DNA of 64,000 bases from Candidatus Binatia bacterium (lineage in GTDB: Bacteria > Desulfobacterota > Binatia > UBA9968 > CAXXLF01). Positions within the stretch are counted from its first letter, which is position 1, and each line of letters opens with the position of its first letter. The notes beneath the pieces are model-generated. The model was not told the origin of the DNA. It made no database searches and saw nothing but the letters and a program-made list of their open reading frames with translations. The stretch lies in contig CAXXLF010000001.1 in NCBI GenBank assembly GCA_963664015.2, forward strand, positions 192,001-256,000, given 5' to 3'. This document shows, in pieces, positions 1,264 to 64,000 of this stretch. Both the position numbers and the translations under genes were made by a program.

Positions 1264-2346
1264 TTACAGCCCGTAGAGCCGTTGTGGGTTCTCGAAGAGG
1301 ATTTTCTCTCTCAAACGCGGCGAGATATCCTCTCTCTCGCTCAACTCCTTCACCATGTCTTCCTGACGCGAAGGGTCGCCGTGAGGGTAGTCCGATCCAG
1401 TCACGAGGCTGTCTTCGCCAATAAACGAAGCGATGTAGTTGAGGTCCTCATCTGCTTCGCAGCCGACGTAGACTCTCCCATCTCGGAAATACTTTGCGGG
1501 ATCGGTAGAGTTTCCCTGCCTTCCCGGATTGGTTTTAACCTGGCGCAACACGAATGGAAGCCAGACACACCCGGATTCCAGGAACGCGAGTTTGAGACGC
1601 GGGAAGGTTTCCATCACCCCCGAGGTCATTAAGCTAAAAAACCCCATCAGGACGGGGAGTATGGCGCTGTAGAAATTCGTGCGGGCATCGAAGACCTCCG
1701 TGTGTTCGGGGCTGCCCCAACCAAGATGAACGCACAGGGGAAGGTCGAGACGTGCCGCTTCCTCGTATAGGGGGAAGAGCGTTGGGTGGCCGAGAACGGG
1801 CTTGTCCCACGCCAGACCGTGAAGCATCACCGACGCCGCGCCGATCCCCTTGACCCGTTTAAGTTCACGGATCGCTTCCGGTATATCCCTTATGGGCAAT
1901 AAGGCTGCGAACATGATACGGCCGTTTGACTGGGTAAATACGTTACCCAGAAAGCTGTTGTAGGCGCGCAGTAGCGCAGCCTCGAACTCGACATCGTCCG
2001 TGGTCGTGCTCAGAAATAGGCTAGGGTATACGATTTGCTTGTCAATCCCCATTTTGTCGAGGTCTTTGAGCCGCGCGGCTACATCGGTCAGCTCCTGGGC
2101 TGGTATCGATTCATGCTTTTGCTTTGCGGATTCCATCAGCGTGGGGGTGCGAAAGATGACCCCGCCTTTGCCAATGAGTTTGGGATACACCTTTCCATCG
2201 ATCAGCCACACTGCGTTGTTGGCGCCGTACACGGTGTCCCGGGCAAACCCGAGGGGAAGCGGCCTGCGCTCACGATACTTGTCTTCGATCAATTCAAACA
2301 TTGCTGGGGATTCTTCGATGTGCCCGTCCGCGTCAATAACAACCAT
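1264..2346 (-). CDS. amidohydrolase family protein (Amidohydro_2, decarboxylase/hydratase type)
   Basis: IDADGH N-terminal metal motif, LCVH, FLESG, GSDYPH, ENPxRLY; AGGAGG RBS. Confidence 0.9.
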   Translation of the reverse strand: MVVIDADGHIEESPAMFELIEDKYRERRPLPLGFARDTVYGANNAVWLIDGKVYPKLIGKGGVIFRTPTLMESAKQKHESIPAQELTDVAARLKDLDKMGIDKQIVYPSLFLSTTTDDVEFEAALLRAYNSFLGNVFTQSNGRIMFAALLPIRDIPEAIRELKRVKGIGAASVMLHGLAWDKPVLGHPTLFPLYEEAARLDLPLCVHLGWGSPEHTEVFDARTNFYSAILPVLMGFFSLMTSGVMETFPRLKLAFLESGCVWLPFVLRQVKTNPGRQGNSTDPAKYFRDGRVYVGCEADEDLNYIASFIGEDSLVTGSDYPHGDPSRQEDMVKELSEREDISPRLREKILFENPQRLYGL

Positions 2347-2644
2347 GTTACCCTCCTGAGCGTGTACTTAAATGTCGGAACCTACAGGCATCCTCAATAT
2401 ATCACGGCTATTGGGGGAGTAAAGGGGGTCGAGAGGAGGGCAGGGGGGGGGAGCGGCCGCCAAGAGGAGTCTTAAGAGGAACAATAAAGAGCAAACGAGA
2501 TTGAAAGGCCTCCCTAAATTCATATGCTGCTCAGTACCCTTCAAGTTACTAGACAATGCCTCATTCATGGCCTTCTCCATTCCGCCATAGAGAATATCCT
2601 AAGCCTAATCATAGTTTCGGGCTAAAGCAAAGCTGATTACCAGG

Positions 2645-2673
2645 TTGACAGCCCTTTGGAGTAGTGGGAGAAT
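2645..2673 (+). promoter_or_regulatory. putative sigma70 promoter
   Basis: TTGACA-17nt-GAGAAT upstream of the + strand genes. Confidence 0.4.
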
Positions 2674-2835
2674 TACGTCGCCTATGAGATCACCATGCAT
2701 CCGACTATGGAAGTGTCATCATAGCTTTTCTAGCTTAATGGTCAGCCTCATTTTGAGGCCATAGCACTTGCAACAGCTCAGGTCGAGCAGTCAAAGGAGA
2801 AACCTTATAATTCCTGTGCCGAAAGACCAACATTA

Positions 2836-3033
2836 TTGAGCCTAATAGATCAGAAAGAGAGTGCAGGCATTGCTATGACAATGACGGAAACTCGAACTGG
2901 TCAAAAAATGACTCCAGAAGAGGCCGTAGAGAAATATATTTCTAAATGTTATAAGAAGCTTTCAACTCTACCTGGCCTTAAAGAATTACAAATATTCACC
3001 AAACCTTTGGAAACTAAGCTGGAGTTTATGTAG
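2836..3033 (+). CDS. short hypothetical protein / possible gene remnant
   Basis: AT-rich 65-aa ORF; no family recognised. Confidence 0.3.
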   Translation: MSLIDQKESAGIAMTMTETRTGQKMTPEEAVEKYISKCYKKLSTLPGLKELQIFTKPLETKLEFM

Positions 3034-3092
3034 TGGTGTTACGGAACAGGCGAGAAAAGACTAGGCCTTAACTGGGTTCCCCAGCGTTATCC

Positions 3093-4274
3093 ATGGCCAA
3101 ATACCTTTACCGCTCCTGTTCGATTATAAGTTTAGTCGCGGCTTTCAGCACGATCTTCGCCTACGAGGTCCATGGCTGGGGAGATACAGCTCATAGAATA
3201 ATCTGTGAGATTGCCTTCCGAGAGGCGAATACTGCTGCACAAGCTGAGGTGAAGCGGCTAATTCGCTTGGACCCTGAGTTCTCCACCTTCTCAGATTCAT
3301 GCACTTGGCCAGATCATCCACGAAAACGTGCCAGTGAACATTTCGTGAATCTGCCACGTTCAGCTACTCAGCTTGAAAATTATCCATGTCCACTGGCTGA
3401 CAAGTGCCTTGTGACAGCAGTAAATGCCGACCTTGCGATTATTGCTGATTCCGCTGGCATTGACACGAATAGGCTCATGGCATTGAAGTTCCTTGGGCAT
3501 TGGGTTGGTGACGTTCACCAGCCACTGCATGTGTCTTTCAGGGATGATCGCGGGGGAAACTCCATCAAGGAGACGGGACCATGTTCAGGGAACCTTCATT
3601 CCGTGTGGGATGGCTGTATTCTTATTAGAAAACTCGGCAGGGACATCGGGAGCATTGCCACTGATCTACGTGGAGCCGTTACCCCGGCTGATCGTAACCA
3701 ATGGAACAACACAGCTCCAAAGATGTGGGCCAATGAGTCCTTCGAGATCGCAACGTCTGGCGCAGTTGAATATTGCATCAAAAAAGACAGTGAATGTTGG
3801 TACGCAGCCGACAATAGGGAACTTGACCCCAATGAGGCAAGACGAGTGGTTGTTGTTGACAACGCCTATATGGAGAGGCAACTCCCAACTGTCAAAACAC
3901 GCCTCACTCATGCTGGTGTTCGCCTTGGTCACCTGCTCAATCAGGCCTTGGGCGGTCAACATGAGAAAGACCCTATGGCAAGATTCAATATTACCAATTT
4001 AGCGACACGTATTCGTAAGACTGGGGCCATTGGCTTTTTCACGAAACTGACACTCAAAAACCAGATTGATGATCTGCTTAGCGAATTTCAAAGGTTTCAT
4101 ACAGGATCTGGTGACATTGAGCTTCCTGTTTTAAATGACCATTTCAATCTTCTGCTCATGAAAGTCATTACGTTGTTACAGGATGATGATCCAAAGTTAT
4201 TTCAGGACATTGTGAGTGCTCGGGAGATTTTATGGATTAACCTCGCCGATCCCGAAAGGTTCCAACGGTTATGA
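3093..4274 (+). CDS. secreted S1/P1 nuclease with extra ~100-aa C-terminal helical domain
   Basis: signal peptide then WGDTAH, WPD, HFVN, HWVGDVHQPLH, DRGGN, NLHSVWD motifs of S1/P1 nucleases. Confidence 0.9.
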   Translation: MAKYLYRSCSIISLVAAFSTIFAYEVHGWGDTAHRIICEIAFREANTAAQAEVKRLIRLDPEFSTFSDSCTWPDHPRKRASEHFVNLPRSATQLENYPCPLADKCLVTAVNADLAIIADSAGIDTNRLMALKFLGHWVGDVHQPLHVSFRDDRGGNSIKETGPCSGNLHSVWDGCILIRKLGRDIGSIATDLRGAVTPADRNQWNNTAPKMWANESFEIATSGAVEYCIKKDSECWYAADNRELDPNEARRVVVVDNAYMERQLPTVKTRLTHAGVRLGHLLNQALGGQHEKDPMARFNITNLATRIRKTGAIGFFTKLTLKNQIDDLLSEFQRFHTGSGDIELPVLNDHFNLLLMKVITLLQDDDPKLFQDIVSAREILWINLADPERFQRL

Positions 4275-53153: not shown

Positions 53154-54641
53154 CTAACCGAGAATGACATCCTTCCACTTATCAAAAACCTGCTTCTTGA
53201 GCTCCGGAGTCGATTCAGCCACCGGAGGGAAATCCTTGATCCACTCAAAGGGACGACAAGCATCGATAATCGCGCGGGAGTTGAACCCCTTCTTCCCAGG
53301 CTGGATACGTGGATCCAAGGGTCCACTCCAGCAACGCCTGAGTATGTCGATGGACTCGACGGGATCCGATCGGCTAGAGATCGCCCACAGCACATCGAAG
53401 GTGTTGGTCGGATCGATATCGTCATCAACCACAATAACGTATCGACCCAGGTAGGCCCCGGCGTGAACCTGAGAGGCCACCAGCGCCGCCTGGCGCGCGT
53501 GGCCCGGGTAGCGTTGTTTAATGGAAATAATGTTTAATAGTCTGCCACCACCGGCCTCGTGACACCAAACCCCTCGGACATCAGGCACCCCTGCCCTTTC
53601 CACCTGATCCCAGATCAATGCGGATTTGACAAAACACTTGGCTAAAGAATAGTCCGAAGGAGGCCGGCCCGGACGGGCGCAACAGAGGATCGGATTGTTT
53701 CGATGGTAGATATTCTCCACTCGGACCACAGGCTCAGGTCGAGTTGAGCTGGCATAGTAGCCTGTCCACTCGCCGAAAGGACCCTCGGACTTGACATCGC
53801 CGGGATGCATAAAGCCCTCGATCACAATTTCTGCGTCTGCCGGTAGAGGCAACCCGGTCGCCTTTCCGTGAACAACCTGGACGGGTTTTCCCTTCAAACC
53901 CCCTGCATAATCGAACTCGGAAATTCCGTAATCCACTTCGTTGCCAGATACCATGAACAGGACCGGATCCTGACCGACGCAGATAATAACAGGACACGGC
54001 TTACCCTGATCGAACCACTTCTGACGTTGAACCTGACCATGTTTTCCGGGCGAGATATAAAGCGCCATACTCTTCTCGTCATGAACCATCCCGCGATAGG
54101 TTCCGAAGTTGACCCACCCCTCCTCCGGATCTTTGGTAATGACCAGACAGGCCGTTCCCAGATAACGTCCACCGTCCAATTCGTGCATGAATGGAACGGG
54201 GAACTTCAACAAGTTGATGTCGTTGCCGGAAAGAATATTTTCTAAAACCGGTCCTTCCTTAACGACCTCATGCGGAATAGGCTTATGACCGGAAAGCTTC
54301 TGACGAAATGCCCGGACTAGATCCAACCCCGTCAAATCCATGGGCAACCCTAGGTTCAGCGCCATTCTCTTGAACGACGCGTTCTGAGCAAAGAGGACAC
54401 GAAAGCCTGCGGGATACCCCTTGATTTTATCGAACAGTACCGCGGGGACCGACCCCTTGCTCTCGCGGGCAATAAGCTCGGAGAGAGTTCCCATCTCCAG
54501 ATTCCAATCCACATTGTCGATCTTCTTGAGTTCGCCCATGCTATCTACAATTGCGAGCCAATCACGGAGATCACCATAAGTCGGTGTTTTACCGGTCCCC
54601 GTCTCCTTGACCGTTTCTTTCGTCGCCTCTAGTGCAGCCAT
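53154..54641 (-). CDS. UbiD family (prFMN-dependent) decarboxylase
   Basis: DGGRY, NFGTYR, EIVIEG, EGPFGEWTGYY, VVDDDID. Confidence 0.92.
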   Translation of the reverse strand: MAALEATKETVKETGTGKTPTYGDLRDWLAIVDSMGELKKIDNVDWNLEMGTLSELIARESKGSVPAVLFDKIKGYPAGFRVLFAQNASFKRMALNLGLPMDLTGLDLVRAFRQKLSGHKPIPHEVVKEGPVLENILSGNDINLLKFPVPFMHELDGGRYLGTACLVITKDPEEGWVNFGTYRGMVHDEKSMALYISPGKHGQVQRQKWFDQGKPCPVIICVGQDPVLFMVSGNEVDYGISEFDYAGGLKGKPVQVVHGKATGLPLPADAEIVIEGFMHPGDVKSEGPFGEWTGYYASSTRPEPVVRVENIYHRNNPILCCARPGRPPSDYSLAKCFVKSALIWDQVERAGVPDVRGVWCHEAGGGRLLNIISIKQRYPGHARQAALVASQVHAGAYLGRYVIVVDDDIDPTNTFDVLWAISSRSDPVESIDILRRCWSGPLDPRIQPGKKGFNSRAIIDACRPFEWIKDFPPVAESTPELKKQVFDKWKDVILG

Positions 54642-55947: not shown

Positions 55948-56300
55948 ACACCCCCCTGAACAGCCATTTTAAACTGTAACCCAATCGATTTGCCCTTTAG
56001 ACCTGCGCTACGAGAGCATAGTCCGGCTACCGGCTATCCTATCTTTTCACAGGTTGTTCTAGCATTTCAAGTACAATATGCAAATCCTCAAGACGCGGTT
56101 TGGGGAACCTCACTTACCGCCCTCAGCCCGGCACCGCAAGCCCCGTGCGTTACGTAAAGATTCATGCTATTAAAAATTATTCCAGCGGCACGCGTTTCAG
56201 CAAAACTCACCCAAGCACGCGGGTGAAGTGCCGTTGCCCTTCATCTTTGTTGGGGCCTTGGACGTGGGAGCAATCACCGGGTAAAATAACAGGAAGAGTC

Positions 56301-57677
56301 ATGAACGCAGATCTAGTCATCAAAGGTGGTTGGGTGGTCACCTCGGAAAAGACCTTCAAGGGAGGGGTTGCCATCTCTGACGAAAAGTTCGTCTCTATCG
56401 GACCCGATGACACCTTGCCCACGGGCAGGGAAGAGATCGACGCCAAGGGCAATCATATCCTGCCCGGCATTATCGACGGCCACGTTCATTTCAGGGAGCC
56501 GGGCCTCACCTATAAAGAGGACTTCCGAACGGGCTCAACCGCCGCTATAGCCGGCGGCGTCGTTCTGGTAGTCGACATGCCAAACACCATTCCTCCCGTC
56601 ACGGGCCCGGAGCAGATCTTAGAAAAACAGCGTCTTGCAGAGGCGAAATCCCTGATTGACTTTGGTCTACTAGGAGTATTGGTTCAAACCAATATAGATC
56701 AAATCCAACTCATGGCCAGGGCCGGCGCCTTGGGGTTCAAGATCTTTTTGGGAGAAACCACAGGGAACCTCCCCTGCCCTGATGATGGGCTTTGTACGGA
56801 AGTATTCCCAACCGTGACCGCATCCAAGCTCCCGCTCTGCGTCCATGCGGAGAGTCGCGAGATCATGGACCACTACGTAAAAAGGTTGAAGGCCGAAGGC
56901 AAGCATGGCCCCGTTATCTGGGAGTCCTCACGCCCGGCAATTTGTGAGGCCGAGGCCGTTTCTCACGCCCTTTTCTTTGCCGAGTCCTATGGGACGAAAC
57001 TCCACATACTGCATATGAGTTCCAAGCAGGCGACCGGCATTGTGCGTGAAGCGAAGGCACGCGGGGTGAGAATCACCGCCGAGACCTCTCCGCACCACCT
57101 CCTCAGGGATTCCAAGGAAATGGAGCGATTCGGTTCTTTGCTCAAGATCAATCCACCGGTCCGGAGTCAGGATCACGGGGAAGCCCTTTGGAATGGACTT
57201 CTCAACGGCACGGTCGATATGATCGCTACCGACCATTCTCCGCACACCCTGGAAGAAAAGGGTTCGGATCCATATGGAAAGCTGCTCAAACCGACCATCT
57301 GGGAATGCATGTCGGGGTTCTGCGGAGTTGAAACAGGCCCCTCACTCATATTGACCGAGGTCAACAAAGGGAGAATGTCCATCAACCAATACGTTAAACT
57401 GACCTCGGAAAATCCGGCAAAGATATGGCAGATCTACCCACAGAAAGGGGCCATGCGGCTAGGATCCGACGGTGATGTTACGGTTGTCGATATGGATAAA
57501 GAATCGACTATTGATATCAATAAACTCCATAGTAAGAACAAGCCCTCTCCCTGGCATGGCTGGAAAGTTAAAGGGATTCCTGTAACCACGGTCGTTCGTG
57601 GCCATATCCAGATGCGCGAGGGTGAGATCGTCGGGAAGTCTATCGGGAAAATGGTCCGACCCAAACCCAGCAGTTAA
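56301..57677 (+). CDS. dihydroorotase/allantoinase family cyclic amidohydrolase
   Basis: DGHVHFREPG, DMPNT, HAE, KINPP, TDHSPH. Confidence 0.85.
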   Translation: MNADLVIKGGWVVTSEKTFKGGVAISDEKFVSIGPDDTLPTGREEIDAKGNHILPGIIDGHVHFREPGLTYKEDFRTGSTAAIAGGVVLVVDMPNTIPPVTGPEQILEKQRLAEAKSLIDFGLLGVLVQTNIDQIQLMARAGALGFKIFLGETTGNLPCPDDGLCTEVFPTVTASKLPLCVHAESREIMDHYVKRLKAEGKHGPVIWESSRPAICEAEAVSHALFFAESYGTKLHILHMSSKQATGIVREAKARGVRITAETSPHHLLRDSKEMERFGSLLKINPPVRSQDHGEALWNGLLNGTVDMIATDHSPHTLEEKGSDPYGKLLKPTIWECMSGFCGVETGPSLILTEVNKGRMSINQYVKLTSENPAKIWQIYPQKGAMRLGSDGDVTVVDMDKESTIDINKLHSKNKPSPWHGWKVKGIPVTTVVRGHIQMREGEIVGKSIGKMVRPKPSS

Positions 57678-62744: not shown

Positions 62745-62838
<94 letters not shown>

Positions 62839-62982
62839 CCAATCGTCGGCCTCCCGATTTCAAATACCATACAAAACAACTATCAGAAAAATCATTATTT
62901 CGAAAACAGACAGGACACTCATTCCTCAATTGCATCGGGAACCAAGCCGGGTATATTGGGGTTATCCTTCCCAGGAGGGTTT

Positions 62983-63579
62983 ATGTTTCAGCCCCAATTT
63001 AAGACCTTCATAATCGTCTGCATATTACTCCATTTTTCCTCCCATAGCTATGCTCAGCTGGGGACTACGGAAGCAACGCCAATGGAACCCACTGACCTGG
63101 ATAGGGTCAAGGCCGACAGCCGGGCACCGGACTTTACCCTGGAAGATATGGAAGGGAAAAGGGTCTCGCTTTTCGAATTTCGCGGCAAGAAAAAGGTCGT
63201 TCTCGTTTTTTATCGAGGCCACTGATGGCCCTACTGTGCAAAACAGCTCGGTGAGCTGAAACACCTCTTAACCACTAAAGAAAAGCAAGGGGTTCAGATC
63301 CTAGCCATCAGTATCGATTCCGATGGCGCATCACAGAGGCTGGTGCAGGAGCTGGAGGAAAGGTTTCCGGGAGAGTTTGACTTTCCACTACTCGAGGACA
63401 AAAACCATCGGGTGATCGATCGATATGGGATTCTCAACCCGAGGAGTCCCGGCTGGCCTCACCCAGCCACCTACGTGATTGACAAGACAGGTGTGGTCCG
63501 TTGGCGTTTCGTTAAACGGGACTATACGCATAGGGCGAGTAACGAGGATATCTTACAGGCGTTGCGAGGTGCCCTCTAA
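62983..63579 (+). CDS. exported AhpC/TSA peroxiredoxin-like protein with in-frame UGA (putative selenoprotein)
   Basis: AGGAGG RBS; APDFTL..FYRGH-TGA(63223)-WPYC..ILAISID..FPLL.D..HPATYVID in one frame; hairpin CAGCTC-GGT-GAGCTG downstream. Confidence 0.75.
63244..63258 (+). promoter_or_regulatory. SECIS-like hairpin
   Basis: perfect 6-bp stem with G-first loop, 24 nt 3' of the UGA. Confidence 0.65.
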
Positions 63580-63844
63580 GCCAAGTCCGGCCCTCCCCTT
63601 TGTGGCCTCCAATCCATGGACTTGGACCAGCCAACCTTGCCCTTCGTTGATCCTTTCCGCTATACTTCTCCTTCTTTGAGGTATGGCATGAGCCAACCCT
63701 CGGGCCAGTCATAGTAACCTGAACCAGTCCACAACGACTGACCGCCTCTGAGAAGCTCAACCACCTAGCCTCTCTTCTTCGGCCGCGTTCGCAGGAGATG
63801 GCAACTACCGTCAAGGCATCTGGAGGGAGAACCGCAGCATTCGC

Positions 63845-64000
63845 ACCTTTCGTTCGCTCCTGCATAAGAACTACGCGATTTTTTGGTCCAGCGATATTCT
63901 GTCTTCTGTTGGGGCGCTGATCCGAGATGTTGCACTTTACTGGCTCGTATACGAGATAACCGGATCCGCTATCGCATTGGCCCTACTGGGCCTCTGTGAG
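63845..64000 (+). CDS. MFS transporter (MFS_3-like), N-terminal part, runs off the window; start unclear
   Basis: TFRSLLHKNYAIFW..S.VG...ALYWLVYEITGSAIALALLG; no in-frame ATG after the stop at 63749, so the 5' end may be frameshifted. Confidence 0.65.

Follow-up and report, generated by a model that had tools for sequence, protein, structure and literature searches.

A displaced UGA codon in the active-site motif of a peroxiredoxin-like selenoprotein gene from a Candidatus Binatia bacterium: shifted catalytic register or young pseudogene?

The gene analyzed here raises the question of what has become of a selenoprotein whose selenocysteine (Sec) codon and neighboring tryptophan codon have traded places. 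It lies in the window, the whole 64,000-nucleotide stretch of Candidatus Binatia DNA that was analyzed, and its local codons are CAC TGA TGG CCC TAC TGT, or H-U-W-P-Y-C if the UGA is decoded as Sec (U). The family motif is FYRGxW-U-P-x-C and, as the preliminary description of the locus had noted, UGA occupies the Trp site in the window and Trp the Sec site. That description left a choice between a novel U-x-x-x-C redox motif and a decaying selenoprotein. Both readings survive the present analysis. We give an even chance to a recently disabled or strongly impaired allele, that is, a young pseudogene fixed in its population, and prefer it to a selected new active site; a working U-x-x-x-C center remains a serious possibility that falls short of an even chance.

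The frame, its features, and the reality of the exchange

The open reading frames 62956..63225 and 63343..63579 share one frame broken solely by the TGA at codon 81, and readthrough from the ATG at 62983 gives a protein of 198 residues, both as initially described (Table 1). Apart from the W/U exchange, the 198 codons contain zero lesions, with no further stop or frameshift. The protein may be exported, as its N-terminus, judged by eye, is hydrophobic. The exchange itself made the perfect inverted repeat that now holds the UGA in its loop; in the ancestor, as reconstructed from ortholog codons, the arm TGACC would have had one mismatch. A promoter and terminator scan at the locus gave nothing beyond shuffled expectation, and next to none of the window's sequence words were present in the RNA runs searched.

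Table 1. Coordinates of the gene, its features, and related genes. Positions are those of the window unless a contig of the same genome (C1 or C2) is named.
Feature	Position	Strand	Basis or remark
tRNA-Ser(gga), divergent	62745-62838	-	upstream of the gene
AGGAGG ribosome-binding site	62970..62975	+	5 nt upstream of ATG 62983; read from sequence
198-codon frame	62983..63579	+	single in-frame TGA
Putative signal peptide MFQPQFKTFIIVCILLHFSSHSYA	62983..63054	+	hydrophobic N-terminus, judged by eye
Perfect 5-bp inverted repeat GGCCA-CTGA-TGGCC, UGA in loop	63217..63230	+	sequence; within MFE fold
In-frame TGA, putative displaced Sec codon	63223..63225	+	TGG (Trp) there in all orthologs
TGG, Trp82	63226..63228	+	Sec codon TGA there in 69/69 orthologs
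TGT, Cys85, retained second residue of the U-x-x-C center	63235..63237	+	alignments to 2ywn, 4xih, 1xvw
SECIS core hairpin, perfect 6-bp stem and G-first 3-nt loop: CAGCTC (63244-49), GGT (63250-52), GAGCTG (63253-58)	63244..63258	+	synonymous-site conservation in 70 orthologs
Other Trx-fold gene with in-frame UGA	C1:856054-855683	-	
Other Trx-fold gene with in-frame UGA	C1:1072317-1071874	-	
Other Trx-fold gene with in-frame UGA	C2:1090533-1090745	+	
Other Trx-fold gene with in-frame UGA	C2:1193973-1194404	+	

The TGA-TGG order is genuine DNA sequence and not an assembly artefact. It is reproduced in Logan contigs from two runs of study P1 (X1 and X3) and one run of study P2 (X4); one of these contigs may be the window's own source, and each covers 62900-63700 (801 bases) with 0 differences. 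No allele other than the swapped one was seen in these three runs from two studies. An 80-aa N-terminal fragment identical to the window's is, in addition, recorded in a protein collection from two contigs, the longer of 3.36 Mb. A sequencing or assembly error concealing a true TGG-TGA order would involve a change of only two bases, and the ancestral form would hold GGTGACC, a possible methylation site; against the agreement of the independent contigs and of the recorded fragments, we regard such an error as extremely improbable. Miscalling at a methylated GGTGACC was ruled out, the motif not being depleted in the genome (619 copies). The seawater metagenome run X6, with 0.49 of the sequence words, yielded no more than a piece of 43 bases, which has 6 differences and belongs to another gene.

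Fold, Sec machinery, and SECIS

The AhpC/TSA fold proposed earlier is borne out by a match to Pfam AhpC-TSA (PF00578; 7.6e-30, 103.8 bits, cut-off 26), and Redoxin (PF08534; 2.3e-21, 76.6 bits, cut-off 26.6) is matched as well. The NCBIfam matches (ResA, Bcp, SelL-related, and PrxU) all fall far under their cut-offs: the best, ResA (NF002854), reaches 67.4 bits against a cut-off of 170, and Bcp (NF006960; 55.7 against 140) and PrxU (NF040737; 45.3 against 270) leave the protein outside the canonical peroxiredoxins. Among solved structures, PDB alignments give small peroxiredoxins and ResA-type oxidoreductases as the best relatives. The peroxidatic Cys of the peroxiredoxins 2ywn, 4xih, and 1xvw falls opposite Cys85, but the P-x-x-x-T-x-x-C active site of a canonical peroxiredoxin is not matched: three positions before the Cys, the peroxiredoxins have Thr, the orthologs Sec, and the window protein Trp. 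Judged from sequence, the gene is the positional ortholog of a W-U-P-x-C peroxiredoxin-like (Prx-like) thiol:disulfide oxidoreductase selenoprotein, in which Sec stands three residues before Cys (U-x-x-C); the window protein, U-W-P-Y-C, departs from that spacing.

The genome of the window (3.51 Mb, 2 contigs) carries the Sec machinery that the preliminary description had proposed to look for. The selA, selB, and selD genes and tRNA-Sec (74 bits) all exceed their cut-offs and are clustered at C2:1306534-1322625 in the order selA, selB, selD, with tRNA-Sec ∼10 kb beyond (loci L001, L004, L005, and L012). The selD gene carries one in-frame TGA, and SelD is probably itself a selenoprotein in this organism. 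At least four other Trx-fold genes of the genome have an in-frame UGA (Table 1), with the motifs FTGGU (Prx type), YWUPKC, GGWUPYC, and ITUPPF; all four have a hairpin 15–27 nt past the UGA and C as the base after it.

The hairpin CAGCTC-GGT-GAGCTG was also described correctly, with its loop starting 24 nt after the UGA, and its conservation pattern identifies it as a predicted conserved SECIS. Alignment of 70 orthologs, which form 65 distinct rows, shows the stem paired in 91.3% of cells, compared with 18–56% when the partner strand is slid, and a compensatory change occurs once in each of two pairs, in L100 (CAACTC...GAGTTG) and L054 (CAGCTT...AAGCTG). The stem codons are nearly frozen (CAG in 69, CTC in 69, and CTG in 66 of the 70 sequences), with third-position entropies of 0.11, 0.11, and 0.22 bits against 1.4–1.9 bits in flanking codons, two other Leu codons included, while the loop codon varies freely. 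The hairpin lies within the MFE fold, and the 76-nt region overall is no more stable than its shuffles (z −0.96), so the support for the hairpin is comparative rather than thermodynamic. Alone, it folds at −6.7 kcal/mol, a value for the core only, to be set beside the −7.5 kcal/mol or lower that the consulted part of review PMC13188914 requires of a whole SECIS element. An Rfam search of the locus returned no SECIS family match, only a tRNA and sub-threshold matches.

The displacement of the UGA alters both its immediate context and its distance from the hairpin. Directly after the UGA, 65 of the 69 orthologs have C and the other 4 have A, whereas the window has U; in E. coli, a U in this place strengthens termination by RF2. 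The distance from UGA to loop is 21 nt in the orthologs and 24 nt in the window, and both values lie inside the 15–27 nt found in the window's own genome and the 16–37 nt of the bacterial SECIS model as given in the excerpts used of PMC13188914 and PMC10778597. In E. coli, the upper stem-loop of the SECIS is placed 11 nt from the UGA (PMC8659212, in the portion consulted). Recoding in vivo, in competition with RF2, is put at 30–40% in an excerpt of PMC4513850, and changes from Sec to Cys are called rare in one of PMC13188914.

Relatives of the gene and constraint on its sequence

A tabulation of homologs, of the kind suggested in the preliminary description, leaves TGA-TGG unique to the window when set against orthologs, protein fragments, and a pattern scan in which each species was represented by one genome. 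The 69 orthologs without exception read TGG-TGA (67 of 67 without L058 of G392 and L064 of G350, from unpublished genomes). They were drawn from 40 relatives, which gave 16 ortholog-level matches, each with one TGA, from a class-level sample of 401 genomes with matches at E ≤ 1e-40 in 58 genomes including the window's own, and from metagenome contigs, which added 7 ortholog loci. Among the best 120 of 127 matches in a protein collection of 5.8 billion clusters, all 119 nonidentical N-terminal fragments end in ...FYRGxW, and only the fragment identical to the window's ends in ...FYRGH. The scan of GTDB representatives, with the pattern F-Y-R/S-G-x-TGA-TGR-NCN-x-C, returned 51 stretches, among them five true homologs, all TGA-TGA, and no true U-W homolog. 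Three U-W matches (L112, L147, and L150) were judged to be chance, with frames of 15–48 codons and motif-driven E values of 7e-5 to 7e-4. The family shows no variation at either exchanged position, W or U; the window gene has thus lost invariant residues, as a pseudogene would.

The best ortholog identity is ∼65% in the class-level genomes, 63% in the metagenome contigs, and at most 72% among the protein fragments; with no closer relative in any of these sources, the exchange cannot be dated. In the tree, the window gene (L020) nests with the orthologs L021–L024 of the same family. The divergent tRNA-Ser(gga) upstream of it is also found upstream of L022 and L023, an arrangement kept in G002 and G004, the two genomes of the same family, and other window genes are found ∼10 kb from the ortholog in both of these.

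Elsewhere in the window, a 525-aa ORF at 56100-57677 (+) has orthologs in G002 and G004 (L191 and L192) with one in-frame TGA within the match; the ortholog shows TAA in G005 and no stop in G039, and the TGA could mark another selenoprotein or be a start-site artefact. At 53154-54641 (−) lies the gene for a 495-aa protein of a heavily expanded family, with 20–68 matches per related genome at E ≤ 1e-30. The downstream neighbor (63797-64000; positions 2316-3560 of locus L020) is a long membrane-protein-like ORF, by eye a possible transporter; it does not adjoin the ortholog in G004, which has a paralog of the 495-aa family next to it.

The five TGA-TGA genes (L113, L114, L129, L131, and L143; U-U-P-x-C) belong to a paralogous subfamily with the motif LFYRGxW-U-P-x-C-RRQLADF and come from an Entotheonella, two alphaproteobacterial MAGs, a betaproteobacterial MAG, and a Binatia MAG. 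The frame is intact in four of the five, L129 being apparently frameshifted after ...ASVDPLD, and selB exceeds its cut-off in four of the five genomes. Within the order to which G403 belongs, the ortholog is present in 67 of 78 genomes; 66 of these show one TGA and G403 alone shows two, and the 30 orthologs fetched from this order all read TGG TGA. By a rough estimate, five such cases among the many thousands of genes in the family are about what ordinary nonsense pseudogenes would yield, and since their frequency looks no higher than that, they do not demonstrate tolerance of UGA at the Trp site. A TGA-TGA intermediate, which the preliminary description had proposed, is therefore a state that exists and a first step that occurs, but one seen as isolated tips with no sign of persistence.

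The rate of change of the window gene gives a mixed picture. Its root-to-tip distance of 0.79 is the second longest of 70 (median 0.50) and its terminal branch the third longest of 70, and it mismatches 6 of 62 columns conserved at 90% or more, 2 of them the exchange itself, where the median of the others is 2. The sister clade L022/L023 is also long, and three neighboring proteins of the window's genome show no, slight, and clear acceleration, respectively, which weakens branch length as a sign of decay. Because dS is at least 2 or not computable for every pair with the window gene, dN alone was compared. To the outgroup L026, over 166 ungapped codons, it is 0.230 for the window gene, 0.254 for L022, and 0.236 for L023; the corresponding figures for the 116 codons that follow the UGA are 0.214, 0.233, and 0.225. 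Of the two findings that the preliminary description had named as jointly refuting its reading, the uniqueness of TGA-TGG is observed; the other, relaxed selection downstream of the UGA, was not seen, the window gene having no excess of dN over its sister orthologs, although with dS saturated a recent relaxation would be invisible. The absence of excess dN argues that the lineage was under purifying selection for most of its history.

The same description had argued that the intact frame favors function. The frame is indeed intact, but this carries little weight: in neutral simulation, the next frame disruption came after a median of 18 substitutions, or after 3–5 events with 10–20% indels, so an open frame is what would be expected of a young pseudogene as well. 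The precision of the exchange is less easily accommodated. An ancestral-like sequence offers 69 one-step routes to a nonsense codon, of which TGG to TGA next to the Sec codon is 1, and the chance that independent decay would exchange W and U exactly is a few percent at best.

Explanations of the exchange and its relation to known systems

The gene is the positional counterpart of a conserved Prx-like thiol:disulfide oxidoreductase selenoprotein that is probably periplasmic and has a W-U-P-x-C center. In the window's lineage, one TGG-to-TGA and one TGA-to-TGG transition have exchanged the family's two most invariant codons, and the canonical U-x-x-C is gone. Insertion of Sec would still be possible, the SECIS, start, ribosome-binding site, and frame being intact and the spacing allowed. 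The A-to-G change perfects the imperfect repeat GGCCA...TGACC, as a quasi-palindrome-templated mutation would, and such templating may have contributed to it; the G-to-A change, which sits in the loop of the inverted repeat, is not explained in this way.

The disabled allele, on which we would stake no more and no less than an even wager, is favored because both invariant residues are displaced in a state confined to one organism, and because the TGA-TGA singletons, lacking persistence and in L129 with the frame lost, have the look of ordinary nonsense lesions. The poorer context of the UGA, now followed by U in place of C or A, the long branch of the gene with its mismatches at conserved columns, and a prior that is high for pseudogenes against an active-site shift never seen point in the same direction. 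Against it stand the intact frame and perfect SECIS, the lack of excess dN, the improbability of an exact exchange, and a spacing within range. Those observations also speak for a shifted site that works, with the SECIS directing recoding of the UGA as Sec81 and either a U-x-x-x-C pair of Sec81 and Cys85 or a peroxidatic Cys85 with Sec81 as its partner, the site having been reached through a U-U (TGA-TGA) or W-W intermediate. Compensation would be expected to exchange adjacent codons exactly, an outcome that is improbable under decay. Cys85 pairs in alignments with the peroxidatic Cys of peroxiredoxins of solved structure, and the resolving residues of peroxiredoxins occur at varied positions. 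The ribosome-binding site and hydrophobic N-terminus are intact along with the frame, the Sec machinery is complete, dN is not raised relative to the sister orthologs, and the exchanged allele is the sole one in three runs from two studies. TGA-TGA genes occur in five species, four with an intact frame and four in genomes with selB, and the 24-nt spacing lies within both the range of the window's own genome and that of the model (PMC13188914 and PMC10778597, as excerpted). What tells against a working site is that 69 orthologs and 119 fragments show no variation at W and U, that the exchanged state is found in one organism and has spread to no sampled clade, that the U-U states are singletons with no sign of persistence, and that the UGA is now followed by neither C nor A. 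On balance, we consider a working shifted site plausible but not the better bet, and its more specific form, a natural one-residue register shift of the catalytic Sec through a tandem Sec-Sec intermediate to a working U-x-x-x-C center, is held more tentatively still.

A further reading dispenses with Sec altogether. UGA is leaky through tRNA-Trp, and with the ancestral UGA-C context lost and U now following the UGA, low-level near-cognate readthrough or a plain stop could yield a Sec-free, single-Cys H-W-W-P-Y-C protein, an 80-aa fragment, or both. However, an intact, in-range SECIS together with a complete Sec system makes SelB-directed decoding the default expectation, and no function suggests itself for an 80-aa piece of a thioredoxin fold; we regard this outcome as improbable.

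If the register shift is real, the spacing tolerance of the bacterial SECIS would let Sec travel along an active-site loop, and the gene would be a natural test both of the tolerance of SelB and SECIS to a 3-nt shift in spacing and of the tolerance of the thioredoxin fold to the position of the selenolate. Decoded and working, it would be, to our knowledge, the first natural one-residue move of a catalytic Sec in a conserved CxxC-type center. A narrow search of the open-access literature turned up no paper on bacterial Sec codons that are adjacent or displaced, nor any experimental data for a UGA moved by one codon with respect to a bacterial SECIS. A dead gene, as under the preferred reading, would be nothing more than a young pseudogene in a known family of selenoproteins, and a caution that an in-frame UGA with an intact SECIS and an intact frame is not proof of a functional selenoprotein.

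Among known systems, the nearest are the Prx-like UxxC/UxxU selenoproteins, which the relevant listing in review PMC13188914 gives as Prx-like thiol:disulfide oxidoreductases (PF00578) "predicted with high confidence." The window gene shares with them the AhpC/TSA-Redoxin fold, the SECIS hairpin inside the ORF, and a Sec-using, selenoprotein-rich bacterium as host; it differs in that the Sec codon has moved upstream by one codon and Trp takes the Sec site, giving U-x-x-x-C. The TGA-TGA paralogs, like it, have UGA where the Trp codon would stand, closely followed by a SECIS-like hairpin, but they also keep the canonical Sec codon and are single tips. In the ResA/TlpA-type W-C-x-x-C oxidoreductases (NF002854; PDB 4nmu and 1st9), the Trp-Cys-x-x-Cys layout matches the W-U-P-x-C of the orthologs, which have Sec for the first Cys, whereas the register of the window protein is shifted. 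The 1-Cys and atypical 2-Cys peroxiredoxins (2ywn; AhpE 1xvw and 4xih) are the best solved relatives (E 1e-12), and their peroxidatic Cys pairs with Cys85; they differ in that the Thr of their T-x-x-C is replaced by Sec in the orthologs and by Trp in the window protein.
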